Source: Escherichia phage vB_EcoP_ShWW44
Length of the DNA: 64,000 nucleotides
Sequence record: PQ900156.1
Reading direction: 5' to 3' (one strand)
Below the pieces are notes generated by a model. The model saw only the letters and a program-made list of their open reading frames with translations, ran no database searches and had not been told where the DNA came from. Shown piece by piece: positions 3,485 to 64,000 of this stretch. Within the stretch, counting starts at the first letter, position 1. Each line of letters begins with the position of its first letter. A program made the translations under genes and the position numbers.

Positions 3485-3491
3485 TCACAAC

Positions 3492-25907: not shown

Positions 25908-25977
25908 GGTCGGGGTAGCACGTAGGCATGTGCAGAAGGTCGCTACTTCTCTCGCTGGTTCGAATCCAGCCCCTGAC
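25908..25977 (+). tRNA. probable tRNA (isotype unresolved; anticodon loop read as GTCGCTA)
   Basis: 7-bp acceptor stem GTCGGGG/CCCTGAC, D-stem GCAC/GTGC with GG in loop, perfect stem AGAAG/CTTCT, T-arm GCTGG-TTCGAAT-CCAGC; TATAAT element just upstream; variable loop only 3 nt. Confidence 0.45.
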
Positions 25978-26433: not shown

Positions 26434-26499
26434 TTCCGGTGTAGGTACTAGTGTCGTGCACGGCATGAGTGTTCTGGTTCGAGTCCAGACGCCGGAACC
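26434..26499 (+). ncRNA. tRNA-like element: acceptor stem + T-arm + encoded CCA, no D or anticodon arm found
   Basis: 5' TCCGGTG pairs 3' CGCCGGA (one G-U); T-arm TCTGG-TTCGAGT-CCAGA; discriminator A then CCA; only 31 nt between acceptor and T-stem. Confidence 0.35.
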
Positions 26500-26597
26500 A
26501 ATTACCAGTTGCACGAGATGGCTTGGCATGTTCAAGTTTGGACTAAGTGTGACACCGCTAGATTGGAGGGCTGCTGCGGTAAGCTATAGACTCCAAC

Positions 26598-26625
26598 CGG
26601 GGGTTCGAATCCCTCACTGGTAACC
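26598..26625 (+). ncRNA. tRNA-like 3' module (T-arm + acceptor 3' strand + CCA)
   Basis: GGGGG-TTCGAAT-CCCTC, then ACTGGTA-A-CCA; only exact 5' partner TACCAGT is at 26502-26508, about 90 nt upstream. Confidence 0.3.
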
Positions 26626-26713
26626 AATTCAAAGTAGCATTGCACTAATCCATCCCGGAGTTCAAAGACCAAACATGGAGCAGTGCTACTTTGAATTAGA
26701 AGAATTAAGGTGG

Positions 26714-26752
26714 GTCTGGTGAAGTAGATAGGGTTCGATTCCCTCCGGTAGA
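26714..26752 (+). ncRNA. tRNA-like minihelix (acceptor-like stem + T-arm)
   Basis: TCTGGTG ... TAGGG-TTCGATT-CCCTC ... CGGTAGA; acceptor arms resemble those of element 26434-26499. Confidence 0.25.
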
Positions 26753-26794
26753 GTAATCTACTAGCGTGCTTGGTGCATGAATAAGACTTAATAC

Positions 26795-26822
26795 TGGTGG
26801 TTCGATTCCATCCCCCACTACC
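26795..26822 (+). ncRNA. tRNA-like 3' module (T-arm + acceptor 3' strand + CCA)
   Basis: GGTGG-TTCGATT-CCATC, then CCCCACT-A-CCA; no complementary 5' strand found within 80 nt. Confidence 0.25.
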
Positions 26823-27351
26823 AATTTGAGGTGTAACAGTTAAATCCAGTTGCCGGAAGTGCTATTCTAGATACGCTGCCAATGTGTGAACGGTAAGGCT
26901 GTACAGGACTCGGACTCCCACCTCAAACCAAAGTCGCCAGGTACTTATGGCAAACGGGTAGTAACGAACTAGTCATTCGTCAAACGCCCAACCTATTACG
27001 AGTCAGCAAGAACGCCTTCACTTAAACTTAAACAATATGAAAGCTTAACGCAGATAATATGTAGGGGTATGTAAGGATTGCGAAGAAGGAGCCAGTTAAA
27101 GCCTGGCATGACTCACCTATTAATAGAGAACATAGTCCTGATTGCATTGCACTCTAAAGACAATGCCGGTGAGACAGTCCGGCACTCTAATTATTGTAAA
27201 CATACCCACTGACGAGTGGGTATGAGTATGAGCAGACTATAATGCTCAAGTACAGTTATCTATTATCGGACTATCAATCCTGTTTGCTGGTACAAGCACC
27301 GGTGGTAATAGTTAACTGGCCTAGTCTCGTTAGCTGCGTTAAAGCTACTGA

Positions 27352-27376
27352 GTCCCTCTTCGGAGGAACTTTTTTA
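27352..27376 (+). terminator. intrinsic terminator with UUCG tetraloop closing the non-coding locus
   Basis: CCTC-ttcg-GAGG core with flanking pairs, followed by TTTTTTATTT. Confidence 0.5.
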
Positions 27377-27398
27377 TTTGAAAGTAGGAGAAATACTA

Positions 27399-27673
27399 TG
27401 GCTAAATATCGTAAAAAACCTGTTGAGATTGAAGCTTTTCAATGGGACGGTAGTCTTAATCTGAACAAAGAACCAACTTGGATAGTAGATGCTCTTCATA
27501 ATGGGGTAGTCTGGTTCTCTGGGAAGGATAATAAATTATGTATCAGAACTCTGGAGGGTATCTTAACTGCTTCCCCCAATGACTATATTATCCAAGGTAT
27601 ACATGGGGAGCTATATCCGTGTAAACCAGATATATTCCTGGAAACCTATATCAAATCAACAACCGTAAGCTGA
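27399..27673 (+). CDS. hypothetical protein (91 aa)
   Basis: Start set to ATG with strong RBS AGTAGGAGAAA (track ORF starts 27242). Confidence 0.6.
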
Positions 27674-31600: not shown

Positions 31601-34600
31601 GTTGTTAGCACCCATGATGGTATCGAACTTCTGCTGTGCATAGTAACGGTCAGCAGGGTTAGTACTATCTGGGTCAGCCATGAACGATTCAACAGTTAGG
31701 TTCTTAGTAACATGTGTGTAGTATTCCTGTGCACGAGCCATAGCAGCAGGGTTAATAGCAGCCTCAGTAGCCAGTGCAGCAACGATGTTAGTGAAGAGAC
31801 GCTGTTCCTGCATATTCATGGTGAAGCCATGGGCCTGAACATCACGGGTTACTTTGGTTGCATTTACTACTGCATCAGAGAACTTACCTTTACGAATTAC
31901 TTGCTGTACTGGTTCTGAACCAATGTAGTCAGTAATCAGCTTATCAAAGGTCTTACCTAACTCTTCCAGACGAGTATTGTCACCATATGCTTTGTTATGG
32001 AACAGGGTAGTGTCTTTGGCTACAGCAGCAGTAGGAGCTTGTCCACGCATTACTACAGCAGAGTTAAACAGTAGGCCAGAGAACATATCATCTGCATTAG
32101 CCGGAGCTTTCTTACGTCCAAATACCAGACGCTTGATTGCTTCATATACAGCCTGAACCATAGCTTTAAGTGCAGTGGTTTTCTTCTGCTTACCAATCAG
32201 TTCACGGTTGGTTAAACCCCAGGCCATGTACTCATTTAGTGCAGCAGCTTTAGCCATTGCTGGTTCAATAAAGCCATTGGACAGGTGACCGTTAATGGTA
32301 TTGAGTGCATCAGCATATGCTTCACGTACTGCCGGAGATTCATCCTTAACATCCAGAGCACGAAACTGGTTCATCAGGTCTTCAATATTCTGAACTGCTT
32401 CATTAGGAGTACCTTCATAATGAGCCAGTACAGATTCAAAAGTAGAGGCATGTACCAACTCATGAACCAGAGTCTCTAAGGAAGGGGTAACTAAATAGAT
32501 GGTCTTATCTTCAAAGTTAGTCCAGCCGTATGCATTACCAGCTTCAGCAGCTTCAATATCTTCCGGTGCTGGGCGAGTAATATTCTTCTCAATAGCATAG
32601 GCATCCAATTGAGCAGGTGTACCATAAACAACCTTATAGTCTTTAGCAGCGAGAGATTTCTGTATTTCTTTCAGTACTGCTTGCTGTTCAGGAGACATCT
32701 CTTTAGCCAGCTTAGAGATAGCAGTATTAGACAGCAGACGTACACCAGACTTCAGTACACGACCAACCTGTTCCATTGCTGGTACTTCTTTCACTGGTTC
32801 TGCTTTAGTAGCACGTACTGCATCACGACGCTTGTTTAATTCAGCATCAAACAGTTCGTTTAGCTTAGCTACTTGCTGGTCTACAGTAAGACCTTCCAGA
32901 GAGATTTTACCGTTGTTCACATAAGGAGCACCAACAGCAGCCATCTGGTCAACGGTGACTTGTACCTGGTCCATTACCTTGTGACGAATATCTACACCCA
33001 AAGCAATGTTACGCAGATTGCGTTCAATTAATGCAATACCAGAATCTTTAATCATAGAAATTTTATAATCTCTATCACCATCTACTCTGGTAATCTGAGC
33101 ACGCTGGTCATACTCCAGAGCAGATTTAGCGATAGCCTGTTTGGTTTCATCAGACAGTTTGCTGAAATCTACGTTCTTATGAAACTTAGCAAAGGAGTCA
33201 TAAACATTCTTGATAGGATTACCCTGCCAGGAAGTATATACAGCCTCATTAGCTTTACGACTTGCGTCAGTGATGTCATTGATACCAATGTTCATACCAT
33301 CAAAGATTTTCAGGGTATTCTTCGGAGCACCTTTCATAGTAGAAAGGGTCTGCATCATCATGCCATCACCAGTACCGATGGTCATAAACGGAATACCTGC
33401 AACACCTGCCTGTGAAGGAGCATAGATGCTCATTGGCACACGCATACGGTCATCTAAGTTGGTAGCCAATACTTGGTTAGCAACATCAGTATTCTCGCTA
33501 CCAGCAATGTAGAAAGTCTGGGAACCAGTCTCAATCATTGGAGCCAGTGGAGATAAGTGATTCTGAATTTCATTCAGTTCTTTCTGAGTTAAGAAATCAC
33601 CTTTCTTCCATGTTGGGTCTTTTTCTTTTTCTGCCAGTTTAGCCTGTACTGCCTGTTGGAACATATCCTGCAATACCAGTGATTGAATCTGAGTAGCCTT
33701 CTGCAAATTTTCAGTAGAGTACATCAGACCTTCACCAACAGTATTTCGGATACCATGTCGCATTGGCTCAACGAACAAGTGAAGCATGTTCTCTTGTAAG
33801 TTCTTCAGAGCATTACCGGATACAGTAAACTTCTGAGGGTCTAATTTACCGGTCAGAGCACCTTCTACCTGCTGAATAGACAACTCACCTTTACGCATAA
33901 CTGGAACATTGCCAGTTAGTGCTTCCATAGAAGTAAGGAAAGTATCCAGCATAGCCTGAGCATCGGCCTCAGACGCAGCCTCCTTACCAAACATAGCCAT
34001 AGCCGGGGAAATGCTAGGGTCAGCAGCACGGGCTTGCAGAACGTCACTGAAGCGTTCATAGATGGTATCAGTAATTGCACTAACCATTTTGCCAGCAATA
34101 CCACGAGCACCTGAACCATAAATGGTAATGGTCAGTGGGTTTTTAGCGATACCGCGTTTCAGGTCCAGAGTACCATCTTCCTTAAGATTGAAGTCTTTAA
34201 TGAATAGGTCCATTAACTTCTGGAGATGCTTCATCTGGTTCGTAACAGGAACGTTGTTACGATAAGTATTACGCAATTCATTCAGATGCCTTTGTAGACT
34301 ATTAGTGGATGCTTCATACAGGTCAACGCTGTCCTCATGCGAATGATGCTCGTTCATAGTCTTGCCAGCTTTACCGAAGAACAAGCCACCTTTAGCAGTA
34401 TTCTTAATCCAGTCTGGAGTGAACTTACCACCCGTCATTAATACCATTGCGTTGATTGGTCCGTTGGTTACACCATCAGCTTCAACGTACAGTGGGGTAT
34501 TAAAGTTGGCACGGTCATCACTGTTAAGATAACAGGCATACTCCATCAGAGCCATGAGAGCTACAAATGATTTATCATTACCCAAAGGGGTCTTCAGAAT

Positions 34601-37600
34601 ATCCACAGCATCAGTAGGTAAGTGCCCAGACTTATCAAACTCAACCATCATATCAACGGCAGGTTTCAATTTACCTTCCAGAGCTTTAGTCAGCTCATCC
34701 GACATAACTTCACGGGACATTTTATGAACTTTGATACCCAATGCCTGAGCCAGTCCAAGCTGGAAGTCAGAGAAGTCTTGACTGTTTTCATTACTTAAGT
34801 CGATGGTAGAGAAAGTTGGTAGGATTGCTTCACGTACCAGCTTAGCTGATTGTGGGTTGTTCTTACCAAGCATCTGCATACGACCTACACGGGTCATGTT
34901 GTAGCCGTAGTGAATAGGTGTAGTGCCAATGTCTTCTCTCTGTTCCTTAATCTGATTGATAACACCAAACAATGGAATCTTTGCATGGACTACGGACAGG
35001 TTCTTACCTTCCAGAGATTTAGCAGTATTCACATTCAGCAATTCTGGGGTAAGAGCACCAGCACCCATCAGTTCCAGAATGTTGTCACGACCCATTGCTT
35101 CATAGAAGTTAACCATAGGCATATGTACACGGAACTCTGTAGCCTGTTCTGCCTTAAGGGCAGCTTTCTGTTCCGGGGTATTCTTAACAGCCGGGTTACG
35201 TAACTGAGTTTGAGCCACAGAAGGGATATCATCACCCAGGTACAGTTTCTCTTCTGGTTCTAAAAGGACAGCTTCCTCAATAGCAGTAGGGAATTTGTTA
35301 ATGGCATCGTTATCATCTAACTTCTCAATGGTATACAGACCAACAGTCTTATTAGATTCTGGGTCAATCTCAGACACATCCAGCATAGACTCTTTAACTT
35401 CACCCATCTCAATGAGAGAAGACAGAATCTCTGTAGCCATTGCCATTGGGATACCCTTGGTATAACCCAGAGGTGCATTAGGATTACGATTAAGTCCCCA
35501 GTAAGATTCAATCTTTTGAGCCAATGAGTTAGTAGCTTCAACCAGAGTCTGAGCATTCTCGAAGTCAGCCAGAATACCTTCAGGTAACAGGGATGCTTCT
35601 ACACCAGTAATAGCAGCTACGTCTTTCATGTCTTTAATGGCAGCATTCTGTGTAGCAGTTAATCGCCATTGCAGACCAGCAAGTACAGCAGTCTCTAACA
35701 ACTGGTCATTGAACTTAAAGGTGTCACCATCTTTCTCTACGATGTTAAGTAACTTACCACCTACCCAACGGTTGGCCTCAGTACCTTCTGCAAAACGTTT
35801 ACCAACGTTCTTGTTAGAAAGGAACTTAGCAAGACGGTCAGACAGAGTAGTCTTCAGAGTTTCACCAAAATCAAACAAGTCCTGATAACGCTTAATCACA
35901 TCACTTGTGAGAGCGTTATTTTCTTTTTGAGTAAATGCTTCAAAGCGAGCAGCAGAAGACAGTGCTTTCTTAACATCAGTCAAAGGAGACACAGAACCAA
36001 TGGTACGAGACTTAGGTTCTTCTGGCAGAGAAAATGCTTTAAGGAACTGGTTCGGTGTCTTGTCATTGTTATAGACAGGGAACACTGTTTCCATTTCCGA
36101 TAGAGGTTTACCACCAACAGTATAGTCTGCTTTCAGTTGAGCCAGTGATACTTCTTCTTTCTCAACGTTATTGGTATTAAGCCCAGATGTATCTACACCA
36201 ATCTGAATCAGTGCATTGTTTGCTTCTACGAATGATTGAACAGTATTGAATTGTTCAGCAGTTAGCTTCTGATTATCAAACAATTGCAGAGATACGAACG
36301 GTTGCTCACTACCTTTATAGAAAGTAGAACGTACAGCACCAGTATCCAGAGACATGTCACGATAACCATCATGACCAAATACGTCAGACAGACTGATATG
36401 GTCGCCATTGGAACCAACAACAGTACCATCAGCGAATAGCCATGGACTATCTCTACGGTCACCATACTTATTAAGAGTATCTTGTGAAATAGTATTCTCT
36501 TTCACATAAGAATCTCTTTCAGATTCAGTAGGCTGTTCAACGATATCCTGTTTTTCAGACTGGTTCTCAGGTTCTTTTACAGTCTGTGGTTTAGACTCTT
36601 TAATAGTAGGTTCTGTTTTAACAGCTTCACTAACAGAGGGTTTAGTCTGTACAGTAGGGGTAACTGGTTCCTGTTTCGTAACAGGAGTTTCATCAACCTG
36701 ATTCACTGGTTCATTAGTCTGTTGGGATTGAGCAGCATCAAGATTGCCCTGACGGAACTCTTTAACTACCTGGGCAGCAGGTTTGTCCAGACGTGAATCC
36801 AATGGGGTAACTTTCACATGAGAAACATTAAGCTCCGGGTAAGCCGTAGCAAGTGCGTTAGCAATATCAGCTACGGTTTTGGCCTCCAGTCCTACTTGCT
36901 GGGCAAACTTAACAGACTTGGTATCATACGGATTGACACCGAGGCCAGTACGACTACGTACCCATTCACGCGAGGGAGTAAGAGCCTGATAATGGACAGA
37001 CTTATTCTTATCCGCATTCCCAGAAATCAGATGCTCATTCAACGCTCCGACCTTATTCTGCATGTGCTGGGCGAACTTCATAAAGTCGTCGAGATAAGCG
37101 GAGGCCAAATCGAAGTTACCAGAGTTGTACGCAGAACGAATGCGTTTAGCATGTTGCAACGCAGAGTACTGGCCTTCATTAGAACGAGATTCGTCGGTTT
37201 TAATCTGTTTACTAACAATGTCTTGAGGACGTAAGCCTAGTTCTTCTGCTTTAGCGTCAAATTCTCGTGCTCCTTGCAATAGAGCAGCAGCAGATTGCAG
37301 GGCAGCACGCTGACGATTCCCCAGTGTAATCTTACCTTCACTTGCATGTTTCAGAACCATGTTCACTGAATCTGCATCCAGTACTTCTGGAGACATATCA
37401 GCAGCCATAGCAATGTTGTTTGCCTGGGCTTGGTTAGCTTCTTCGGTAGCTTTCAGTTTACCTGCTTCAGCCTGTTCCTGAATCATGGAATGGATGGCAC
37501 GGAATGCACGGAGTACCTTCGGTGTATTCTGTACATTAGCCATCAGACCAGAGAACTGGTCAACGATATTAGCAGCAGGAGAACCCTGTTCCAGATTAGC

Positions 37601-39448
37601 CAGAGCACCCGGGTCACGGTTAATGAAGCTATCCATAGACATAATGTTGTCATACATCTGGATTGCAGCTTCCATTTGAACGTTAGGGTCTTCGGCAGTA
37701 TTAACCAGGTCAGCCATCTTCTGAATAGCTTCAACACGGTTAGTGGAACCAGAAACAGCTTCACGGATTGCTGGACTAGCTTGCTCCAGTTCTACTGGGT
37801 CAAACTTCATTACCTGAGTTAAGTCAGCAGCATACTGTGTAGCAGCAGCTTTCTCTTCAGGAGAAATATCCATTGCATCCACTGCTTCCTGAACAGTTGC
37901 TTGTGCTTGTTCTGCCTGAGCAGTAGCTTCTTGTGCAGCAGCGTTAACCGTAGCGTCTGATACAGGGGATGCTTGTTCGTTACGCTTAGCAACTTCTTCA
38001 CCACGCTGAACCAGGATGTTAGTAATAGGAGAAGCTACTTTTGCTAGTGCCTTACCAGCCAAAGAAGCACCAGCCAGGGTAGTACGTACAGCAGGACCAA
38101 CGGCAGCACCAGCAGCCTTAACAGTTGCACCAGGAGCTTGAGCAACTCCAGCAGAACCAAAGCCATACAATGCACCAAGACCAGTTTGTTCACCCACACC
38201 TTTAAGCAAATCACGCTTAGCATCTACATTACCCTGAATTGCCTTGTTCTGTGCGAACTGACTTGTACCAGACTGGATACCTTCTTCTACAGTCTCACGC
38301 AACATGTTAGAACCAGCACCAACCAGTGAACCTACCTTAAGTGGGTTAAGTTCAAACTTGGATACCAGTGGACCAGTAAGAGCAGCAACCGGAGCAGTTA
38401 AGCCAGCAGCAGTGATACCTGTTTCAGACGCAGTTTGACGACGTGCTTCTTCAGGAGATAAACCATCTTTAATATGCTGTTGGTATACAGGGGATTTAGC
38501 AGCCAGTTCACTGAACGGCATTTCCATAATTTCATTAGCAGTCTGTTGGTATGCTCCACCAGCTTCCATTCCACCAATTGCTATAGCAGGCGCAGCAACA
38601 CGACCAGTAGCCATTGCAACCTGTGCAGGACGTGAACCTAACTCAGCAGCTAGGGTAATACCCTTAACAGCTTTATCACCACCTACCATTACTTTACCGA
38701 GAGCAGATACACCACGGATAAGTGGACCACCGGTAAACAGAGAACCAACACCCTCAGCCAGACCATCTGTAGCAGCCATGCCATTGGACAAAGTGTTAGC
38801 AACTGAATCGTAAGCATCACGACCAATGCGAGACAGAGAAGCAACGAGTTCACTTTCTCCTTTATCAATATCCTGCTTATAGAGTTTCTCGTTTTCCTGA
38901 GCAGATATTACGTTCTGGTTCTGTACTACATTACGACGAGCATTCAGTGCATCAGACTGTAGGTTGTGTACACCTTTATTCAACCAGTCAAGACCGGAAG
39001 CAATGGATGCCCCGGCATTATCATTGACCAAACCTGTACCAAGAGCAGCAATGCCCCCAAGGGTATTAGCAACACCAAGACCAACACCAGAAAGGGTATC
39101 ACCAAGTGCTTCACCATATGTACGACTCTTAGTTAAATCACGACGAACAGCATTAGCTGCATTGACACGAGCATTGAGAATATCCATTCCTTGCTCATTG
39201 CCATACTTGTTTATGATTTCAAGAGGGGAGGCATTAGTAAAATCTGCCTGAATAGAACCTGGTTCAAATGCACCAGCACCTAAATCACCGGCACGGCCTG
39301 CCTGTAACTGGTAGGCGTTCTGTGGGGTTAATTGGAAAGGGCTTTGCCCTTGTTCAGCTTGTTTCCGAGAGGTTGCAGTAGAGACATCGACTTGCTTAGC
39401 AGTAGTGATGCTGTCTGCGAAACCTGCCAGACGGTCAAATGTTGACAT
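28661..39448 (-). CDS. giant virion-encapsidated RNA polymerase (N4 vRNAP-like)
   Basis: About 3600 aa; T7-like motif A YVEADGVTNGP, motif B RGIAKNPLTITIYGSG, motif C LKIFDGMNIG with the A and C aspartates about 392 residues apart; track start 39466 is TTG, ATG with AGGAA RBS is at 39448. Confidence 0.85.
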   Translation of the reverse strand: MSTFDRLAGFADSITTAKQVDVSTATSRKQAEQGQSPFQLTPQNAYQLQAGRAGDLGAGAFEPGSIQADFTNASPLEIINKYGNEQGMDILNARVNAANAVRRDLTKSRTYGEALGDTLSGVGLGVANTLGGIAALGTGLVNDNAGASIASGLDWLNKGVHNLQSDALNARRNVVQNQNVISAQENEKLYKQDIDKGESELVASLSRIGRDAYDSVANTLSNGMAATDGLAEGVGSLFTGGPLIRGVSALGKVMVGGDKAVKGITLAAELGSRPAQVAMATGRVAAPAIAIGGMEAGGAYQQTANEIMEMPFSELAAKSPVYQQHIKDGLSPEEARRQTASETGITAAGLTAPVAALTGPLVSKFELNPLKVGSLVGAGSNMLRETVEEGIQSGTSQFAQNKAIQGNVDAKRDLLKGVGEQTGLGALYGFGSAGVAQAPGATVKAAGAAVGPAVRTTLAGASLAGKALAKVASPITNILVQRGEEVAKRNEQASPVSDATVNAAAQEATAQAEQAQATVQEAVDAMDISPEEKAAATQYAADLTQVMKFDPVELEQASPAIREAVSGSTNRVEAIQKMADLVNTAEDPNVQMEAAIQMYDNIMSMDSFINRDPGALANLEQGSPAANIVDQFSGLMANVQNTPKVLRAFRAIHSMIQEQAEAGKLKATEEANQAQANNIAMAADMSPEVLDADSVNMVLKHASEGKITLGNRQRAALQSAAALLQGAREFDAKAEELGLRPQDIVSKQIKTDESRSNEGQYSALQHAKRIRSAYNSGNFDLASAYLDDFMKFAQHMQNKVGALNEHLISGNADKNKSVHYQALTPSREWVRSRTGLGVNPYDTKSVKFAQQVGLEAKTVADIANALATAYPELNVSHVKVTPLDSRLDKPAAQVVKEFRQGNLDAAQSQQTNEPVNQVDETPVTKQEPVTPTVQTKPSVSEAVKTEPTIKESKPQTVKEPENQSEKQDIVEQPTESERDSYVKENTISQDTLNKYGDRRDSPWLFADGTVVGSNGDHISLSDVFGHDGYRDMSLDTGAVRSTFYKGSEQPFVSLQLFDNQKLTAEQFNTVQSFVEANNALIQIGVDTSGLNTNNVEKEEVSLAQLKADYTVGGKPLSEMETVFPVYNNDKTPNQFLKAFSLPEEPKSRTIGSVSPLTDVKKALSSAARFEAFTQKENNALTSDVIKRYQDLFDFGETLKTTLSDRLAKFLSNKNVGKRFAEGTEANRWVGGKLLNIVEKDGDTFKFNDQLLETAVLAGLQWRLTATQNAAIKDMKDVAAITGVEASLLPEGILADFENAQTLVEATNSLAQKIESYWGLNRNPNAPLGYTKGIPMAMATEILSSLIEMGEVKESMLDVSEIDPESNKTVGLYTIEKLDDNDAINKFPTAIEEAVLLEPEEKLYLGDDIPSVAQTQLRNPAVKNTPEQKAALKAEQATEFRVHMPMVNFYEAMGRDNILELMGAGALTPELLNVNTAKSLEGKNLSVVHAKIPLFGVINQIKEQREDIGTTPIHYGYNMTRVGRMQMLGKNNPQSAKLVREAILPTFSTIDLSNENSQDFSDFQLGLAQALGIKVHKMSREVMSDELTKALEGKLKPAVDMMVEFDKSGHLPTDAVDILKTPLGNDKSFVALMALMEYACYLNSDDRANFNTPLYVEADGVTNGPINAMVLMTGGKFTPDWIKNTAKGGLFFGKAGKTMNEHHSHEDSVDLYEASTNSLQRHLNELRNTYRNNVPVTNQMKHLQKLMDLFIKDFNLKEDGTLDLKRGIAKNPLTITIYGSGARGIAGKMVSAITDTIYERFSDVLQARAADPSISPAMAMFGKEAASEADAQAMLDTFLTSMEALTGNVPVMRKGELSIQQVEGALTGKLDPQKFTVSGNALKNLQENMLHLFVEPMRHGIRNTVGEGLMYSTENLQKATQIQSLVLQDMFQQAVQAKLAEKEKDPTWKKGDFLTQKELNEIQNHLSPLAPMIETGSQTFYIAGSENTDVANQVLATNLDDRMRVPMSIYAPSQAGVAGIPFMTIGTGDGMMMQTLSTMKGAPKNTLKIFDGMNIGINDITDASRKANEAVYTSWQGNPIKNVYDSFAKFHKNVDFSKLSDETKQAIAKSALEYDQRAQITRVDGDRDYKISMIKDSGIALIERNLRNIALGVDIRHKVMDQVQVTVDQMAAVGAPYVNNGKISLEGLTVDQQVAKLNELFDAELNKRRDAVRATKAEPVKEVPAMEQVGRVLKSGVRLLSNTAISKLAKEMSPEQQAVLKEIQKSLAAKDYKVVYGTPAQLDAYAIEKNITRPAPEDIEAAEAGNAYGWTNFEDKTIYLVTPSLETLVHELVHASTFESVLAHYEGTPNEAVQNIEDLMNQFRALDVKDESPAVREAYADALNTINGHLSNGFIEPAMAKAAALNEYMAWGLTNRELIGKQKKTTALKAMVQAVYEAIKRLVFGRKKAPANADDMFSGLLFNSAVVMRGQAPTAAVAKDTTLFHNKAYGDNTRLEELGKTFDKLITDYIGSEPVQQVIRKGKFSDAVVNATKVTRDVQAHGFTMNMQEQRLFTNIVAALATEAAINPAAMARAQEYYTHVTKNLTVESFMADPDSTNPADRYYAQQKFDTIMGANNIEFDAQGRSSLLPTFVGLAMVSEEVRKVLADIPVMKADKKSGNTVDAMLTNIGTAAMASLNARVAGDTKATNVQEGMDALAQTIMQTSLNAESFYDSVATPTGNAIDRANQYLVDSIDVLSTRALEGAREVAANTKNPLVKGAAHAAQLVAAIATEKNGSIVAEGVMAAMNQGKVWQPFHDLVNDIIGRTKSNASVYDLIKAVRAQVQADRQQFREHLPTTIASKFSRKLTNDEWKAMHTGMGKTDLAVLRDTMSLDEIRDLLTDQKIVDREVNKLEADLQKQAGRNWPLINRKSKQLAQYMINGTVGNNLLRNATAISRLLGERKTTRSVVDVAQLDKLITLYALEAMNKTDREVLSSLAQTEIEGMDFATSYLVGQRKDEMAKAKSDSRATLNQYKGYIPSDSKQGVNLIVAEDSQFADLIEKSYVRLGTYQGSSANRGPARSYYFAPVQAQAPFSQGILQNVRNTAGGVDLGTGFTMGTMVAGRITDKPSVDRITKAQARGERGNEPLLPVYDANGNVVAYEQSIDPNMLKHIEGENHLARAIGVWRGRQVEEAKAQRFNDMLIENLHSMYENDIKMSASNKSQYVNLLGSKLDPVTADALKLMNSETRQKAESLFGPGELWVRRDMLNDALGYRAASVGDAWSGNSRWSPETLDTFKKAMMGVFGNRAYKYVMGGENLVQNLVKEAKTLIVVKSVVVPAVNFLANLYQMVARGVPVKNIAKSIPQKTAEINQYLKSRLRQVDAEAELRAATNPNQIRKLKAEIQSITDSHKRLSIWPLLEAGEFSSIADAGIGRDDILITEGKLHEYMDKLADKLPKSVRNAGRYALIPKDTALFQGIQKTVEYSDFIAKAIIYDELTQRKGKTREEALGRVTEEFINYDRLPGRFRGYMESVGLMWFYNFKIRSAKVAVSMIRNNPVHAAMAMLAPTPTMFGNVGLPIQDNIFSIAAQGNLGYSFGFGQGLRAHNLNPWLNLTN

Positions 39449-39517
39449 AGCAAGATTCCTGTTCAAACTTATATCGTATAAGAAGATTCACTGTACAGTA
39501 AGTGAATGTAAGAGAAA

Positions 39518-59135: not shown

Positions 59136-60746
59136 TCACACAATATATGAACGTAGAGGGTTAACACTATCTTCTTCTTCATCATCCCACATCGGGTCAC
59201 CTTTATTATCCACCATAGTCATACCTGCTTGTGGTTTCCATGGATTGAGATAACCCAGCATAGAGATAGTATCAATACAGTCATCCTTACCTTTGATTCC
59301 ATTAATGGTAGCTAGTTTAATCTGGCCCATGAACAGACCCATAATAGTTGAATCTCTCAACTCTTCCGGGAAATACATCTTACCAGCTTTGAACCATGGA
59401 ACTACCAGGTTAAAGCGTGACAGCTTAGAAGTTACAGGACGTATGCCTGGCTTACCACCCTCAGAGGATGCAAAGTTAAAGAAGACATTACGGTTAATCA
59501 TTTCTTTCTGAAGGAGTGAAATGAATCCATTCTGTTGTCCTGTGATTTCGACCCCAACGTTTTGTGGTTGGTATTCTTGAACCAGACGGAACAGGTCATC
59601 GAAGTTTTTATCCATAAGCTGACGATTAGCCACACCATCAACCCAGAACCAATCTCCATTAGAACTATAAGCCCAAACTGATATGACACTGTAGTCACTG
59701 GTCTGTTTCTCCGAAGTAGCAAAGTCGGTTGTAATGTAATAGTTGTAGCAGGACTTCATCCTTAACAGTTGTTGTCTGCTATACCATCTAATTTCACTAT
59801 CCTGAACCAGTCTCTCATCCTCAGAACTAATACGTAACATAAGTTCCTGATAGAAGCCTGCCAGCTTACCTGTCTTAACTGCCATGTCATATTGGGCTTT
59901 AATGTAGTCGTAAGAGAAACGGTCATCCCATGCACCCTGAAATTCTTCTCTGCTACATGGGAACTTCTCACATACAGGCCATACGTTGACATCCCATGCA
60001 CCAGACTCAACTGCTTCAATGATAATGTCTTCCTTATTAAAGGGAGTACCGTTGAAGATTACTTTACGACGAGTAGGGTCAAGAGCATGGTTCACGCCTT
60101 TATAGACGGTGTCTTTAATAGCTTCCATGCTTGTCTTGGAGTTAGCATCGCCATCACTAATCAAGTCATCCAGTACACAGAGTGTTGGACGTTTACCATA
60201 TATCTTCGTACCACGAAGACCTGTCTTAGCACCAAACAGCTTAACACCAAGTCGATGCCCTTCTACATTACGAAACTCTAATAGGTTATCCGTAAAGGTA
60301 GCTTCAGGTATCCATTGCTGAAGGAACTCACTATTCTTATAACGGAACTCAATATTCTTACGTGCAGACTTAGCACCGTTATCCATTGAGTCAGATACGT
60401 AAATCATTCCTTCTACTTTACCTAGGCTAGGTAAGTGACCAAACACTGCCAGGAATAAAGTAAAGTATTCCATGAACACAGCAGTCTTACCTGCACCACG
60501 GAAGCACAGGTTAACTACATACTGGTTCGGGCTAATCATCTTATCCAGCATCTTCAAGTGAACTGGGGGTGTTTTGTTGGATTCACCTTCTTTGCCATTA
60601 ACCAACTTAATAAAGTTGGCAAAGGTAAGAGCAAACTGACTGGGAACATAGTTGGAAGAGTTTAGGTGGGAGTAATCCACCTGGTCTAGCCATTCATCCA
60701 GTTCCTGTTTAATTAACTCAGACATCTGTAATGTCCTCATCTGCAC
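59136..60746 (-). CDS. terminase large subunit
   Basis: Walker A-like RGAGKTAVF, Walker B-like region, C-terminal nuclease-like acidic residues; 536 aa. Confidence 0.7.
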   Translation of the reverse strand: MQMRTLQMSELIKQELDEWLDQVDYSHLNSSNYVPSQFALTFANFIKLVNGKEGESNKTPPVHLKMLDKMISPNQYVVNLCFRGAGKTAVFMEYFTLFLAVFGHLPSLGKVEGMIYVSDSMDNGAKSARKNIEFRYKNSEFLQQWIPEATFTDNLLEFRNVEGHRLGVKLFGAKTGLRGTKIYGKRPTLCVLDDLISDGDANSKTSMEAIKDTVYKGVNHALDPTRRKVIFNGTPFNKEDIIIEAVESGAWDVNVWPVCEKFPCSREEFQGAWDDRFSYDYIKAQYDMAVKTGKLAGFYQELMLRISSEDERLVQDSEIRWYSRQQLLRMKSCYNYYITTDFATSEKQTSDYSVISVWAYSSNGDWFWVDGVANRQLMDKNFDDLFRLVQEYQPQNVGVEITGQQNGFISLLQKEMINRNVFFNFASSEGGKPGIRPVTSKLSRFNLVVPWFKAGKMYFPEELRDSTIMGLFMGQIKLATINGIKGKDDCIDTISMLGYLNPWKPQAGMTMVDNKGDPMWDDEEEDSVNPLRSYIV

Positions 60747-61407
60747 GTACTAGTTTAGAACCAGCAACCTCTTTGGTAGGTACACCACTATTGATTGCAT
60801 TAATTTGCTGTTCAGCCAATGCAGCAAGTGTTGCCTTGAGGTCAGTTAATCCAGAGTTCTCTCTCAAGTCCAGATTGATATTCGTTACCTGGTCTTTCGG
60901 TTTAGCTAAGTGAGTAAGGATAGAGTTAGCTGCATCACATCTTACTTTCTCACTTGCTGCTGAAGTCATTAGTTCAACCTGAACGTTGATGGCCTTCTGA
61001 TAATTGTCCTGGTTCACAATCCACACTGGAACCAAACTTTGTTCCATGATGAGGTTAACTAACTTACCCCTGTGATAAGCAGATACATAAGCACTAATAT
61101 CTTTCTCACTGGTTCCTCGTGCTACTAGTTCTGCTTGTCGGTTAGGGAATGTTTTGAAGTAGGCTTCCTTATTTGAGTAGCCCATATGTTTATAAGTTAC
61201 ATACTGAACTGCATTCATGTAGTCCTGTGTCTTAAACTTACCTTCCTTCATTACACCAGAGTAGGAGATAAAGTTTTCACGGAAGGACTCAGCAACCAGT
61301 TGGTCTTGGGTAATGTTGTTAATTGTATCTACTAACTCTTGGGTCACACTGTTTTTGAAGTTAGCAGGTAGTGCATTAATAATCTGCTGCTTAGTTAGTT
61401 CACTCAT
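60718..61407 (-). CDS. first gene of late block; possible terminase small subunit (position only)
   Basis: 229-aa ORF overlapping the large terminase start by 29 nt. Confidence 0.35.
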   Translation of the reverse strand: MSELTKQQIINALPANFKNSVTQELVDTINNITQDQLVAESFRENFISYSGVMKEGKFKTQDYMNAVQYVTYKHMGYSNKEAYFKTFPNRQAELVARGTSEKDISAYVSAYHRGKLVNLIMEQSLVPVWIVNQDNYQKAINVQVELMTSAASEKVRCDAANSILTHLAKPKDQVTNINLDLRENSGLTDLKATLAALAEQQINAINSGVPTKEVAGSKLVRADEDITDV

Positions 61408-61578
61408 ACTTATCTCGCTACAAAGTTATGTCTATTAAAGAAGATTCTTTTCTTGGGGTGAGTTACCCCTTGAAGAAACGATACCATACAGTTACACTTT
61501 AGTCATGATATAGAAAAAGTTCATGATACTAAATAGTATGTAATGTTCCGATGACCCTATTCCCAAAAGGAGTAACCT

Positions 61579-61869
61579 TTGAGAATCTATATGAGAGTCC
61601 ACGACTCTAAAGATGTATACAAAGAGCTAGACCACACTAAAGCTGGTATTCTTTCAGATGACATTATCATCACACATGATGAAGACACCTACCATGAATT
61701 AGCTGGGATGATGCTTTTAGAGAATCATCCAGGCATTAAAATCTTAGAACCAAGAGAAACATACTCTTTAGAAAAACGCCTTTCAGCTCTTGTGTTCTTC
61801 ACAAAATTACCTCATAGTGTCTCCGTCAGGCGAAGCAAAGACAGTGTTCGGATGACGGTGACGATGTGA
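61579..61869 (+). CDS. early protein, hypothetical (96 aa)
   Basis: AAGGAG RBS; track start is TTG at 61579, first ATG at 61591. Confidence 0.5.
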   Translation: MRIYMRVHDSKDVYKELDHTKAGILSDDIIITHDEDTYHELAGMMLLENHPGIKILEPRETYSLEKRLSALVFFTKLPHSVSVRRSKDSVRMTVTM

Positions 61870-62017
61870 TTAGTCATGCCGCCTAGTAGACAGTGGCGGT
61901 ACTCGTAAAGAGTTAATAACTTCTACAGTCAGGGTTGCCCGGCTCCTTTCCTACCTAGTAGGCTAACGATACACATGTATCTAGGGTGATGAACTGACCC
62001 GTGATAGAAAACGGTAA

Positions 62018-62053
62018 GGGGTAGAGTCGAGAGGCTCTACCCCATTTCTTTTT
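62018..62053 (+). terminator. intrinsic terminator in early region
   Basis: GGGGTAGAG-tcgagagg-CTCTACCCC followed by ATTTCTTTTT. Confidence 0.65.
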
Positions 62054-62069
62054 AAGGAGGTATGAAATT

Positions 62070-62468
62070 ATGAGCATCTACGCTTTTGATATTGATATTA
62101 CCGGTGTACTACGCAAGCAAGAACCATATTACCTAGAGGAACCAGAGGTAGTAAGTAAGATGATTACCCCAAGACAATCAGTATTCTTTCCTGATTGCGA
62201 GGAATCACACGAGATTATTGGTTCTTTCTTCTTATCCAACCTGCAACTTAACACTGAGATACTTACTGAACCAAAGGTATATGATCTTACTGAGTATAGC
62301 GACTTCGAAACATTCTTCCCAGGAGTCAGATTCTATAAAGTACCTGGTTGGGAAATGATAGCTGACCATAACGTCTTTAATAAAACACTTTCTATTTACT
62401 TCAGACCTATCCCTAAAGGAAGGAAAATCAATCATGAAATTCATATTGACCGCCCCCAGTTTTATTAA
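62070..62468 (+). CDS. early protein, hypothetical (132 aa)
   Basis: AGGAGG RBS. Confidence 0.6.
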   Translation: MSIYAFDIDITGVLRKQEPYYLEEPEVVSKMITPRQSVFFPDCEESHEIIGSFFLSNLQLNTEILTEPKVYDLTEYSDFETFFPGVRFYKVPGWEMIADHNVFNKTLSIYFRPIPKGRKINHEIHIDRPQFY

Positions 62469-62748
62469 AGGGGAATCCTTGTACACAACAGACTTCACTT
62501 TAGAAGAGGTTATAGATAGCAACCCTCAACATGTAATCCTGGTTCCTACCTTAGAGGACTACCATGAAGTAAGAGGTCAACTCTTCTTAGCAGGGAATGA
62601 CCGTAAGGTTGTGTGTATCATTCCACCGTCTGTCTATATAGACTATCAGGCTTATGATGCTATCCCTTACATGTTGGTATCCGATGGCTACCAGTGGGAA
62701 AGTCGTTATGAGAATGAGGAATACCGTTACTACTATGTAAGGAAGTAA
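62434..62748 (+). CDS. early protein, hypothetical (104 aa)
   Basis: ORF overlapping upstream gene by 35 nt. Confidence 0.5.
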   Translation: MKFILTAPSFIKGESLYTTDFTLEEVIDSNPQHVILVPTLEDYHEVRGQLFLAGNDRKVVCIIPPSVYIDYQAYDAIPYMLVSDGYQWESRYENEEYRYYYVRK

Positions 62749-62751
62749 GCT

Positions 62752-63075
62752 ATGTACCTGTACTCATTAGTTGCACTACGTACTTGTTATTATCCCCATA
62801 CACTAACTGGACAATATTCTGGCAATGGTAAGGTGGAGAGTACTACCATCCTGTATGAGCCAAGTGAAGAAGCAGATGTGTTCATTGGTACTTGCCTGCT
62901 GTTGGGGCAACCTATCAAATTCATTAAGATAGATAGATCCGTAGAAATACCGGAACACACCAGTGTGTACATACTATCTGAGAATGAACCTATGGTAGTT
63001 ACTACCCTTACAGGTAGACTTATTACCCTCTACCCTTCCACCTCATATTTATCTAGCGACGAGTGTGCCCTATGA
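62752..63075 (+). CDS. early protein, hypothetical (107 aa)
   Basis: ORF tightly packed after previous gene. Confidence 0.5.
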   Translation: MYLYSLVALRTCYYPHTLTGQYSGNGKVESTTILYEPSEEADVFIGTCLLLGQPIKFIKIDRSVEIPEHTSVYILSENEPMVVTTLTGRLITLYPSTSYLSSDECAL

Positions 63076-63413
63076 ATAGAGTACTGTACCTTCATCAATA
63101 TACAGATGATGTCTCTGTTTACTCCGAGAATGTCAATAAAGCTATTGATTGGTTACTGCCACAAGACTGTCATATGCTTATGCTATCTGGCGAGTTAGCA
63201 GATAGTACCCGTGGTTCCATCCTTCTACTTAACAGTCTAGCTAAGTTAACCATCCTTAACCCAGGTGAATCCATAGAGATACCTGCAGGTGAATCTGCAT
63301 TTTTGTTCTTTGAACCAAGGATAGAAGAAGGGTTTGTTGGGCTTACTATAGATAGCAGACCTAATAAAGATTTTAAAAGAGTACGTATCATCACCCCAAG
63401 GGTATCTCTATGA
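63063..63413 (+). CDS. early protein, hypothetical (116 aa)
   Basis: ORF overlapping neighbours by a few nt. Confidence 0.5.
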   Translation: MCPMNRVLYLHQYTDDVSVYSENVNKAIDWLLPQDCHMLMLSGELADSTRGSILLLNSLAKLTILNPGESIEIPAGESAFLFFEPRIEEGFVGLTIDSRPNKDFKRVRIITPRVSL

Positions 63414-63739
63414 AACTAAACACATCCCCCTATCCAGTACAGCTAGAAGTAGTATTTGACCAGGATACCTTCATTAAAAAGTACAAGAAACTTAAAGGGT
63501 ATGAGCCAGACTTGGACGATTGTAAGGGGTATACTTCTTACTCTGGAAATCGAGTATTGATCGGTATCTTTAGGGAACCTTTACATACACTCATCCACGA
63601 ACTCAATCATTTCTGTTTATGGGTGTTTGACTACATAGGTATGCCTATAAACTCTGCCAATAGTGAAGCATATTGCTATTACTATGACCATATCTTCTCC
63701 CAGATTCCTTCCTCCTATTTAACTGCTTATAAGGGCTAA
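63410..63739 (+). CDS. small HExxH protein (putative mini zinc-metallopeptidase)
   Basis: LIHELNHFCLW contains HExxH; 109 aa; ATGA overlap with upstream gene. Confidence 0.5.
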   Translation: MKLNTSPYPVQLEVVFDQDTFIKKYKKLKGYEPDLDDCKGYTSYSGNRVLIGIFREPLHTLIHELNHFCLWVFDYIGMPINSANSEAYCYYYDHIFSQIPSSYLTAYKG

Positions 63740-63740
63740 C

Positions 63741-63875
63741 ATGTGGTATGTAACAGTCAAGGGCTTACCTGAACCAGTAATAGTACACAGCCTAGCTTTC
63801 GTAGAAGTTGGTGGACCATTGCTTGTAAACGGTAAGCTGTATGAGGTTTTAGGTATTAAACGCTATGACGAATAA
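63741..63875 (+). CDS. small hypothetical protein (44 aa; below ORF-track cutoff)
   Basis: ATG 2 nt after upstream stop; ends just before hairpin 63876-63893. Confidence 0.3.
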   Translation: MWYVTVKGLPEPVIVHSLAFVEVGGPLLVNGKLYEVLGIKRYDE

Positions 63876-64000
63876 GGGGTAGATAGCTACCCCAACCATC
63901 TTTCATATTAATACCTCAAAGCTATCTGCTTATAGAGATAGTGCCTATAATATTTTTGCATGTCAAAATTGTGATAGCTATGTACAGCCATAGTGGTGTG

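Follow-up and report, generated by a model that had tools for sequence, protein, structure and literature searches.

The seven-gene block at positions 61579-63875 of the Escherichia phage vB_EcoP_ShWW44 sequence (PQ900156.1; the whole 64,000-nucleotide stretch analysed is hereafter referred to as the window) lies at the right end of the linear genome of a G7C-like (Gamaleyavirus) N4-like coliphage, the end that is injected last. We interpret the block as a right-terminal accessory module of this phage rather than as an early host-takeover block, and the probability of this interpretation, including the functions proposed below, is put at roughly 55%. The gene order is a gp70-like gene, a structured RNA with a terminator, a gp71-like gene, three paralogs, a gene for an HExxH protein, and a gp72 ortholog. 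N4 has just gp70, the RNA, gp71, and gp72 here, and therefore the lineage of the window phage expanded the gp70/gp71 family from two to five copies and gained the HExxH gene between gp71 and gp72.

Although N4 has long served as a model phage, no function has been assigned to gp70 to gp72 at its right end. The paralogy of gp70 and gp71, the expansion of this family in a mosaic hotspot, and the conserved RNA provide testable handles on the right end of N4. The block shares with that end its position, its orientation, and its order (a gp70-like gene, a structured gap of about 200 nt, a gp71-like gene, and gp72 last), and ORF1, ORF2, and ORF7 are homologs of gp70, gp71, and gp72, respectively. 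In contrast to N4, the window phage carries three further family members (ORFs 3-5) and, between gp71 and gp72, the HExxH gene, and the paralog region is mosaic among its close relatives.

Genomic position and gene content

The closest relative was phage St11Ph5. The block region was 92.9% identical to St11Ph5 69844-72444, which is the end of that record, and the block itself mapped to the final 2.3 kb, past the terminase genes and in divergent orientation to them. The St11Ph5 record starts with the conserved left-end sequence, and its start and end do not overlap. In the circular record of Bas96, the block continues straight into the left-end genes. [quoted passage not shown] The features of the block are listed in Table 1.

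Table 1. Features of the right-terminal block and its borders in the window, with PHROG matches and pN/pS values.
Feature	Position	Strand	PHROG match (E-value)	pN/pS	Description
Small terminase gene	60718-61407	minus		0.12	pN/pS control
Divergent intergenic region, small terminase gene / ORF1	61408-61578				from sequence reading
ORF1	61579-61869	+	phrog_7213 (8e-44)	0.24	96 aa from TTG; alternative ATG at 61591 gives 92 aa; annotated gp70 in St11Ph5
Structured RNA	61867-62057	+			about 190 nt, eight helices, terminator last
ORF2	62070-62468	+	phrog_9160 (1.8e-64)	0.21	132 aa; gp71 ortholog
ORF3	62434-62748	+	phrog_11661 (1.5e-61)	0.23	104 aa; paralog by profile similarity, gp70/gp71 family
ORF4	62752-63075	+	phrog_12099 (1.9e-48)	0.35	107 aa; subfamily B of the gp70/gp71 family, by profile similarity
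ORF5	63072-63413	+	phrog_12606 (1.2e-53)	0.15	113 aa from ATG; 116 aa from GTG at 63063; subfamily B, by profile similarity
ORF6	63410-63739	+	phrog_1365 (2.5e-30)		109 aa; stand-alone mini HExxH...E (gluzincin-like) protein
ORF7	63741-63875	+	phrog_19797 (1.7e-31)	0.17	44 aa; gp72 ortholog
Terminal hairpin GGGGTAGATAGCTACCCC	63876-63893	+			directly 3' of the ORF7 stop codon

All seven plus-strand ORFs that had been called in the initial annotation were present at the same coordinates and were confirmed as genes. Each product matched a PHROG family of its own (E-values of 2.5e-30 to 1.8e-64), homologs of ORF6 were found (see below), and all seven are annotated as CDS in St11Ph5 under labels such as gp70, gp71, and gp71.1. 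In addition, six of the seven (all but ORF6) were under purifying selection, with pN/pS of 0.15-0.35; an antisense ORF used as the second control gave 0.77. The initial annotation had also described the genes as tightly packed, which holds for ORFs 2-7 but not for ORF1, separated from ORF2 by a 200-nt gap (61870-62069).

ORF7 was 68% identical to N4 gp72. The terminal hairpin that follows it has no T-run on the plus strand, and its 5' arm matches the 5' arm of the terminator of the structured RNA. None of the seven block proteins had a match in Pfam, NCBIfam, or PADLOC, and scans of IMG/VR loci recovered close relatives only. Literature searches on the function of gp70-72, gene essentiality in N4-like phages, small phage metalloproteases, and non-coding RNAs of N4 found nothing relevant.

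A conserved structured RNA between ORF1 and ORF2

Between ORF1 and ORF2 lies a conserved structured RNA of about 190 nt that ends in an intrinsic terminator, formed by an 11-bp stem (62018-62043) followed by ATTTCTTTTT. The T-run extends to 62053 and abuts the ribosome-binding site of ORF2 (AAGGAGG, 62054-62060). The RNA was 91-99.6% identical in 56 Gamaleyavirus records, a level of conservation above that of the flanking genes. It had not been described in the initial annotation.

RNA sequences were compared using a curated alignment and a covariance model. In eight sequences, the 47 base pairs of the structure were 99.2% paired, and eight pairs had changed on both sides, compared with 1.7 in shuffles; two pairs of the terminator stem were compensated in Moo19. 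The covariance model detected the RNA at full length, on the plus strand, and at the same position in Moo19, in KP8-like phages, and in N4, with E-values of 8e-46 to 5e-9 (3e-9 for the N4 copy). The comparison across the four genera gave 26 pairs with changes on both sides; shuffles gave 16.2 and slid controls 1-6. Searches of Rfam 15 gave no match within 61867-62057 at E ≤ 1 and none in the window at gathering scores. A 40-aa ORF on the minus strand (61955-62077), considered as a coding explanation of the gap, was rejected because of a 1-nt indel among close relatives and the compensatory changes in the stems.

A lesser though serious possibility is that the RNA is a cis-acting leader (an attenuator, a riboswitch-like element, or a processive-antitermination element) that gates ORFs 2-7, rather than a trans-acting sRNA or an element of the ORF1 3'-UTR. 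The arrangement is suggestive of such a role, in that a strong terminator comes after a domain of several helices and its T-run stops at the base before the ribosome-binding site of ORF2, and this arrangement is retained in four genera. However, a terminator followed by a ribosome-binding site also occurs at many ordinary gene boundaries in the genome, and because such junctions are common, the terminator alone is no proof of regulation. Neither an alternative antiterminator pairing nor a riboswitch match in Rfam was found. In addition, LUZ7, an N4-like phage of Pseudomonas, produces discrete late sRNAs from an intergenic region (PMC9163698). The RNA predicted here resembles those sRNAs in being non-coding, terminator-bounded, shorter than 250 nt, and intergenic in an N4-like phage; it belongs to another genus and another locus.

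ORF6, a stand-alone HExxH protein

The HExxH motif reported for the 109-aa product of ORF6 (LIHELNHF) was located at residues 61-68 and is evolutionarily fixed. By chance, about 0.002 such motifs are expected per 109 aa and 0.33 in the large ORFs of the window taken together, which contain three; the motif of ORF6 is meaningful because it is invariant in homologs. There were 126 close homologs. Distant ones formed at least 621 clusters at E ≤ 1e-3, whose representatives were almost all 95-190 aa long, and the family spans Schitoviridae, Ackermannviridae, Guernseyvirinae, and other groups. Residues H63, E64, H67, E86, and Y90 were invariant in 42 homologs that were 23-44% identical to ORF6. The glutamate of the motif (E64) was kept in 17 of 18 close and 42 of 42 distant homologs, the exception being a natural homolog, P0089, with alanine at this position.

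The initial annotation, which had proposed structure prediction as a check, had seen no recognisable fold in any of the seven products. This fails for ORF6, whose AlphaFold2 model (pLDDT 92.7) has a zincin-like topology of strand-helix-strand-strand-helix(HExxH)-helix(E86). In the model, H63-E64-x-x-H67 lies inside helix 57-75, and E86, 19 residues past H67, opens helix 85-96, which by sequence and secondary structure fits the third ligand of gluzincins, a glutamate on the next helix some 18-30 residues further on. The HExxH helix comes after a three-stranded sheet and a backing helix. Given the invariant residues and this layout of the HExxH and E86 helices, ORF6 can reasonably be read as a minimal zinc hydrolase and most likely as a peptidase, in agreement with the earlier suggestion of a minimal zinc metalloprotease. 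The protein is probably active as a zinc-dependent hydrolase, and narrow-specificity peptidase activity is its likeliest function. The predicted metal ligands are H63 and H67, which share a helix, and E86 on the following one, and E64 would serve as the catalytic base.

Gluzincins are thermolysin-like enzymes with HExxH and a downstream glutamate, and the archaeal 'minigluzincins' are, to our knowledge, the smallest of them. ORF6 shares with gluzincins the helix-borne motif, the glutamate at +19 at the start of the next helix, the small sheet and backing helix ahead of the motif, and a size of about 100-110 aa. It differs in that its family resides in phage genomes and an invariant tyrosine lies four residues past the glutamate, and its sequence and structure matches to solved or curated zincins fell short of significance.

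A structural search of BFVD with ORF6 retrieved 20 phage proteins at E < 1e-3, and weaker matches included proteins named 'IrrE' and 'PolyVal metallopeptidase'. The weak matches to curated families or solved proteins were all zincins, namely SprT-like, DUF4344, astacin, M78, SPRTN, BMP-1, bacillolysin, and CapP. Nothing was above threshold in Pfam searches with 52 ORF6 homologs (42, then 10) or in Pfam, NCBIfam, and PADLOC searches with ORF6 itself, and comparison of the family profiles with PDB sequences gave matches at E ≥ 0.25 only. ImmA/IrrE (M78), CapP, and PolyVal/ArdC-type metallopeptidases have HExxH...E like ORF6 and cleave one specific regulator. ORF6 differs from them in being roughly half their size and in having no adjacent HTH partner; no HTH repressor gene was found next to it, and its neighbors ORF5 and ORF7 contain no Pfam domain. 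PF06114 (M78) was matched by one of the 42 family members, below threshold (E = 0.21).

Outside the window, homologs of ORF6 were encoded in replication, recombination, or terminase modules and not in early regions. In phiEap-2 the gene lies between DNA polymerase I and a helicase, in Maynard it follows the gp47/gp46 nuclease downstream, and in Possum it separates the small terminase gene from the large one. Such contexts would suit a SprT/Wss1-like protease that acts on DNA-bound or crosslinked proteins and aids phage replication, recombination, or packaging instead of countering immunity, an identity that we regard as unlikely for ORF6. Similarity to SprT, SPRTN, and Wss1 was very weak but recurrent. 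The SprT-like family (PF10263) was matched by six of the 42 family members (best E = 0.034), and SPRTN (6mdw) was both the top Foldseek match of the model in the PDB and a weak profile match. However, all of these similarities were non-significant, the Pfam scores being below threshold. The third ligand of SprT-type enzymes (SPRTN and Wss1) is a histidine, whereas the ORF6 family has no third invariant histidine and the invariant candidate ligand is a glutamate. Moreover, a length of 109 aa leaves no space for a DNA-binding or zinc-binding subdomain, and ORF6 has no such accessory region.

It is improbable that ORF6 is no protease at all but a metal-dependent hydrolase of another kind (an RNase like YbeY, for example) or a catalytically silent binding protein on a zincin-like scaffold. 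The alanine at position 64 in one homolog and the very small size of the protein, which leaves little substrate cleft, would be in accordance with this alternative. In contrast, the retention of the HExxH glutamate in all but one of the homologs counted above is typical of an active general base, and the signature of YbeY is a histidine triad of the HxxxH type, not HExxH...E. ORF6 represents a large family that lacks annotation, is distributed across unrelated phage groups, and consists of zincin-type proteins close to the minimum possible size; if active, it would define a new peptidase family and offer a compact scaffold for enzymology.

Transcription timing and promoters

In the initial annotation, the block was taken to be early and to occupy the position of host-takeover genes, which was not borne out. 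The heptamer of the vRNAP hairpin promoter (GCTCCGC) had no match in the whole 64-kb window. In the left 9 kb of St11Ph5, it occurred four times against 0.23 expected, upstream of gp1, gp1.2, gp2, and gp15, and each site lay in a stem-loop followed by TnTGG. In N4, vRNAP promoters are found only at the left end, the first part of the genome to be injected (PMC4496689). The block has neither the GC-TCC-GC hairpin promoter nor the left-terminal, first-injected location of the N4 early class. The label 'early' is not supported, because the heptamer is missing from the window and the block lies at the end that enters last. For small unknown genes of N4-like phages, genome polarity and the hairpin-promoter motif should be checked before an early or host-takeover label is given.

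Two scenarios would assign the block to the conflict with the host. The first, which seems rather doubtful, is a regulated counter-defence cassette of N4 and its relatives, in which the RNA, not described before and conserved across Enquatrovirinae, would control or accompany small gp70/gp71 inhibitors that expand in tandem and ORF6 would be the founder of a new family of minimal phage zinc peptidases (at least 621 clusters) that cleave host immune or DNA-bound proteins. The second, an operon for early host takeover or anti-defence, with the HExxH protein cutting a host defence factor soon after infection, is quite unlikely. The genes are small, fast-diverging, and variably present, like many counter-defence genes, the catalytic signature of ORF6 is conserved, and circularised records place the block directly upstream of the left-end early genes in the same orientation. 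However, the vRNAP hairpin promoter is found nowhere in the window, injection of the right end, where the block lies, comes last (PMC4496689), homologs of ORF6 in other phages occur in late or DNA-metabolism modules, and no PADLOC-related signal was detected.

Transcription of the block, as part of the accessory module favored here, probably falls in the middle or late phase, with ORFs 2-7 expressed via read-through of the terminator of the structured RNA. This timing is argued by exclusion, because no promoter of the block was identified. A sigma-70 scan gave fewer sites than in shuffles, and the sole sigma-70-like match on the plus strand in the region before ORF1 (61355-61383) was weak. The 9-mers common to the block and the rest of the window were noise. 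Inspection of the intergenic regions of St11Ph5 recovered the vRNAP promoters and many terminators and gave no clear middle-promoter motif. The word ACTTTAG, common to the window and the region upstream of gp70 in N4, was considered as a promoter candidate and rejected, as it was not enriched at gene starts.

A conserved hairpin, GGGGTGAGTTACCCC, was identified at 61455-61469 between the small terminase gene and ORF1, and the same stem is present in N4 as GGGGTTAGCACCCC. The ribosome-binding site of ORF1 (AAGGAG) lies at 61567-61572. Positions 61485-61565 were invariant in nine Gamaleyavirus sequences, whereas the coding sequence of ORF1 was variable in the same set.

ORFs 1-5 and the gp70/gp71 family

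By profile similarity, ORFs 1-5 are diverged copies of one family that includes N4 gp70 and gp71, and the same comparisons indicate that gp70 and gp71 are paralogs of each other. ORF1 was 33% identical to N4 gp70 (tblastn), and ORF2 aligned with N4 gp71 and with proteins of KP8 and Moo19. ORF3 has no counterpart in N4; it matched phrog_16338 (E = 1.9e-4), which was also matched by ORF1. The likeness among ORFs 1-5 was absent from the initial annotation.

Comparison of profiles with hhalign gave P values of 1.1e-5 for ORF2-ORF3, 8e-5 for ORF1-ORF3, 1.4e-5 for ORF1-ORF5, and 5.9e-4 for ORF4-ORF5. Paralog pairs (P of 1e-5 to 6e-4) aligned in one register, and controls with ORF6 and ORF7 gave P ≥ 0.045. 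An iterated HMM search of 1082 six-frame ORFs recruited only ORFs of the block, N4 gp70 and gp71, and the homologs of KP8 and Moo19. E-values were at most 2.4e-23 for ORFs 1-3 (2.4e-23 for ORF1), 5.3e-22 for N4 gp71, and 3.2e-12 for N4 gp70, and ORF4 was recruited from the ORF5 seed at 1.3e-31. The link of ORFs 4 and 5 to ORFs 1-3 is a profile comparison of a core of about 50 residues with one invariant glycine; the profiles of family A and family B were aligned by hhalign with a probability of 95.9% (E = 5.1e-9, 52 columns). Pairwise identity is just 14-27% with that single invariant glycine, but the common register of all pairs, P values down to 1e-5 against the controls, the retrieval of block ORFs only among the 1082 candidates, and the family-level probability make it very improbable that the likeness reflects chance or composition among unrelated genes.

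Both profile similarity and genomic position place the proteins in the uncharacterised, Enquatrovirinae-specific gp70/gp71 family of N4. The top match of the family in the database search was N4 gp70, and all database relatives were located on contigs of about 70-74 kb. Pfam searches with 34 family members gave nothing above threshold, and the family profile had no match among PDB sequences. The AlphaFold2 model of ORF3 (pLDDT 83.3) showed an alpha/beta fold. The paralogs are probably small non-enzymatic alpha/beta binding proteins diversifying against variable targets of the host or of competitors.

The paralog segment is the mosaic, fast-diverging portion of the block. Identity to St11Ph5 was 76-88% across ORFs 2-4 and 100% across ORFs 5-7 and the non-coding parts, ORF4 being the most divergent segment (76% DNA identity). 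The presence of ORF5, ORF6, and ORF7 varied among relatives, and the alleles of ORF5 among Gamaleyaviruses fell into two classes, about 90% and about 40% identical. Two copies of the gp70/gp71 family were counted in N4 and five in the window phage, and relatives reached five to six in this mosaic hotspot.

Organization and genomic position of the right-end module

The right-end module opens with a gp70-like gene (ORF1), which is followed in order by a terminator-bearing structured RNA, the gp71-like ORF2, three more paralogs (ORFs 3-5), a mini HExxH protein (ORF6), and a gp72-like gene (ORF7). All seven ORFs (hereinafter referred to as the block) were present in the window at the coordinates of the initial annotation (see table), and each matched its own PHROG family of unknown function (E 2.5e-30 to 1.8e-64). 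Their description as tightly packed applied to ORFs 2-7 and not to ORF1, which lies 200 nt from ORF2; ORF2/3 overlapped by 35 nt, ORF4/5 and ORF5/6 by 4 nt each (ATGA), and the remaining spacings within ORFs 2-7 were 1-3 nt. The pN/pS values against orthologs in related loci were 0.24 (ORF1), 0.21 (ORF2), 0.23 (ORF3), 0.35 (ORF4), 0.15 (ORF5), and 0.17 (ORF7), compared with 0.77 for an antisense ORF and 0.12 for the small terminase gene. For ORF6, the fetched loci contained a single, identical ortholog, but the protein has 126 close homologs. The hairpin following ORF7, without a U-run on the + strand, shared the word AAGGGGTAGA with the terminator of the RNA (62016-62025).

The last 2.6 kb of Escherichia phage St11Ph5 (69844-72444), a Gamaleyavirus (G7C-like, Schitoviridae, Enquatrovirinae), was 92.9% identical to window 61400-64000. 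This query matched 58 related records, only 12 of which covered at least 80% of it. In St11Ph5, the block genes are annotated as gp70, gp71, gp71.1, gp71.2, and three unnamed CDS, divergent from gp69/gp68 (small/large terminase genes), and position 8445 is the counterpart of the window start. Since the end and start of the St11Ph5 record had no sequence in common and conserved left-end sequence was present at its start, the block occupies the right-hand terminus of the unique sequence in a linear genome. The circularised record of Bas96 shows it continuing directly into the left-end genes with unchanged orientation. Upstream of ORF1, the intergenic region that separates it from the divergent small terminase gene was almost invariant among Gamaleyaviruses (61485-61565 was 100% identical in 9 sequences), and it contained a hairpin, GGGGT...ACCCC, whose stem is kept in N4 too; this region probably holds a putative leftward late promoter and a putative ORF1 promoter.

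The corresponding end of N4 is limited to gp70, gp71, and gp72, with a gap of 210 nt between the first two. Homology links the block to these N4 genes, for which no function is known, and ORF7 was 68% identical to N4 gp72. A literature search found no paper on gp70-72-type genes, the RNA, or the mini-zincin family. Overall, the block consists of variations on known kinds of element, phage accessory genes and zincins, together with an undescribed RNA.

Elsewhere in the window, a tRNA-Ala(cgc) was called by ARAGORN at 25908-25979 and was unreported by the Rfam scan at gathering thresholds. The ~1.4 kb after tRNA-Ala in St11Ph5 (34424-35841; window counterpart about 25980-27400) is without annotated gene.

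Coordinates of features in the window and in related phages (L numbers denote loci of the phages named)
Feature	Position	Strand	Remark
ORF1	61579-61869	+	gp70/gp71 family
ORF2	62070-62468	+	gp70/gp71 family
ORF3	62434-62748	+	gp70/gp71 family
ORF4	62752-63075	+	gp70/gp71 family
ORF5	63072-63413	+	gp70/gp71 family
ORF6	63410-63739	+	109-aa HExxH protein
ORF7	63741-63875	+	gp72-like
Divergent intergenic region	61408-61578		small terminase gene / ORF1
Hairpin GGGGT...ACCCC	61455-61469		
Structured RNA	61867-62057	+	between ORF1 and ORF2
RNA, N4 (L016)	3862-4059		
RNA, KP8 (L012)	3062-3305		
RNA, Moo19 (L015)	55-255		
Intrinsic terminator	62018-62043		11-bp stem; T-run to 62053; end of gap 61870-62069
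Hairpin GGGGTAGATAGCTACCCC	63876-63893	+	directly after ORF7 stop codon
ORF with HExxH motif VLMHELWHV	3408-4667	+	residue 109 of 419-aa middle-region protein
ORF with HExxH motif LVHELVHAS	28661-39466	-	residue 2335 of 3601-aa virion RNA polymerase
ORF6 homolog, Possum (L028)	1816-2163		
vRNAP hairpin promoters, St11Ph5 (L014/L029)	78-100, 890-905, 1160-1175, 5963-5978		outside window

A paralogous family encoded by ORFs 1-5

Sequence comparison assigns five of the seven block genes, ORFs 1-5, to one family. Inspection by eye and alignment revealed a common central motif, ILVPxxExxHExxGxxLLxN....ILxP, and both ORF1 and ORF3 matched phrog_16338. With hhalign, ortholog profiles matched in one register throughout (P = 1.4e-5 for ORF1-5, 1.1e-5 for ORF2-3, 8e-5 for ORF1-3, 5.9e-4 for ORF4-5, and 1.6e-3 for ORF1-2), while any pairing with ORF6 or ORF7 gave P of at least 0.045. 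Iterated HMM searches were run against 1082 six-frame ORFs taken from the window together with related loci. The ORF3-seeded model gathered ORFs 1-3, N4 gp71 (5.3e-22), N4 gp70 (3.2e-12), and homologs from KP8 and Moo19 with 0 decoys; the ORF5-seeded model gathered ORFs 4-5 and, weakly, ORF1. The two family profiles matched each other with 95.9% probability (E 5.1e-9, 52 columns).

About 5-6 members per genome were found in Gamaleyaviruses, Moo19, and KP8-like phages; all database relatives were on ~70-74 kb contigs, and no sequence relatives were found in Pfam or PDB. The AlphaFold2 model of ORF3 (pLDDT 83.3) was a small alpha/beta domain with a conserved core of a strand and the main helix. 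DNA identity to St11Ph5 was mosaic, being 76-88% in ORFs 2-4 and 100% in ORFs 5-7 and the non-coding parts, including the terminal non-coding 125 nt, which indicates apparent recent recombination within the block. Among close relatives, ORFs 5, 6, and 7 were variably present or represented by very different alleles. The array probably encodes small binding proteins diversified by duplication and recombination.

A structured RNA between ORF1 and ORF2

Across nine Gamaleyavirus sequences whose ORF1 coding sequence varied freely, three stretches were near-invariant: the intergenic region preceding ORF1, the final 85 nt of ORF1, and the gap. Because synonymous sites were invariant as well in these last ~85 nt (61784-61869) while the rest of ORF1 varied, an overlapping RNA or DNA signal is suggested, e.g., the 5' part or promoter of the downstream RNA. 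Gap identity was 91-99.6% in 56 records and 76% in Moo19. A 40-aa minus-strand ORF in the gap was ruled out by a 1-nt indel among close relatives.

An eight-helix structure fitted the alignment, consisting of a 5' hairpin, a small hairpin, a long-range two-part stem around two hairpins, a further hairpin, and the terminator; 99.2% of cells were paired, and both-side changes occurred in 8 pairs (1.7±1.1 in shuffles, 0-2 in slid controls). A covariance model derived from this structure gave full-length, + strand matches at the same position in Moo19 (156 bits), KP8-like phages (35-42 bits), and N4 (35.5 bits, E 3e-9), and no match elsewhere. Four Enquatrovirinae genera carry the RNA, at about 190-245 nt, between a gp70-like and a gp71-like gene. 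In the four-genus alignment, whose fitting to the covariance model favours the structure, 96.6% of cells paired, with both-side changes in 26/47 pairs (shuffles 16.2±1.8, 0/500 reaching 26; slid controls 1-6). G·U pairs conserved on the + strand indicate that the RNA would have the same polarity as the block genes. No match was found in Rfam.

The RNA may act as a cis leader, as a 3'-UTR element, or as a trans sRNA. Its strong terminator is followed, right after the T-run, by the ribosome-binding site of ORF2, an arrangement in line with a cis leader; such junctions are common in the phage genome, and therefore the terminator alone is no proof of attenuation. Late intergenic sRNAs are produced by the N4-like phage LUZ7 (PMC9163698).

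ORF6, a mini HExxH protein

The HExxH motif noted initially in ORF6 was found at residues 61-68 (LIHELNHF). The large ORFs of the window contain three such motifs where 0.33 would be expected, so conservation counts, not presence alone. In 18 N4-like homologs, H63, N66, H67, E86, and the SEAYCYY segment were invariant. Searching 1.84 billion cluster representatives with a profile yielded 621 relatives at E<=1e-3, nearly all of 95-190 aa; in 42 of them (23-44% identity to ORF6), Y8, G40, H63, E64, H67, E86, and Y90 were invariant columns. The confident AlphaFold2 model (pLDDT 92.7, pTM 0.83) was ordered as strand, helix, strand, strand, HExxH-bearing helix, and a helix beginning at E86, which is the element order expected of a gluzincin catalytic core.

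ORF6 thus resembles gluzincins in motif and topology, whereas every test against curated families failed, with no match to Pfam, NCBIfam, or PADLOC models. Outside confirmation of the gluzincin-like fold was weak: PDB profile matches (E>=0.25) did not extend beyond the strand-plus-HExxH segment in SPRTN, astacins, bacillolysin, and, unexpectedly, the N4 virion polymerase, and the family profile matched solved N4 vRNAP chains in the region of LVHELVHAS only weakly and not significantly (E about 1). In BFVD, 20 uncharacterised proteins matched at E<1e-3, the named ones being from diverse phages; weaker matches bore the names PolyVal metallopeptidase, SprT-like, and IrrE.

ORF6 probably acts as a zinc hydrolase, and a narrow-substrate peptidase is the likeliest kind, with H63, H67, and E86 as putative ligands and E64 as putative base. 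A non-proteolytic role is a less likely rival reading; among the 18 N4-like homologs, E64 was replaced once, by Ala. An SprT-like DNA-associated protease is another, likewise less likely, rival. ORF6 is best described as representing a new zincin-like family rather than assigned to SprT, M78, or another named one.

The gene was found in 96 records of annotated phages, with identities of 54-100% for Gamaleyavirus alleles, 67% for KP8, 31% for Possum and phiEap-2, and about 27% for Ackermannviridae. Its neighbours vary from phage to phage: in Pectobacterium phage Possum, a more distant schitovirus, its place is within the late operon, flanked by the small and the large terminase gene, in phiEap-2 between DNA polymerase I and helicase, and in Maynard downstream of the gp47/gp46 nuclease.

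Timing of expression

In N4, early genes have hairpin promoters that are read by the injected virion RNA polymerase and confined to the first-entering left end, and late transcripts run leftward (PMC4496689). As a positive control, four N4-type promoters were identified at the St11Ph5 left end, upstream of gp1, gp1.2, gp2, and gp15, with a 5-6-bp stem around GC-TCC-GC followed by TnTGG. The GCTCCGC heptamer occurred there 4 times (0.23 expected) and 0 times on both strands of the whole 64-kb window. The block had been proposed as early on account of its location, with its proteins as anti-defence or host-shutoff candidates; given the absent heptamer and its position at the right end, it is probably not early. 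Neither a convincing sigma-70 promoter nor a middle-promoter motif was assignable to the block. By exclusion, its timing would be middle or late; the module would be expressed once the early phase is over, and ORFs 2-7 would rely on read-through of the terminator.
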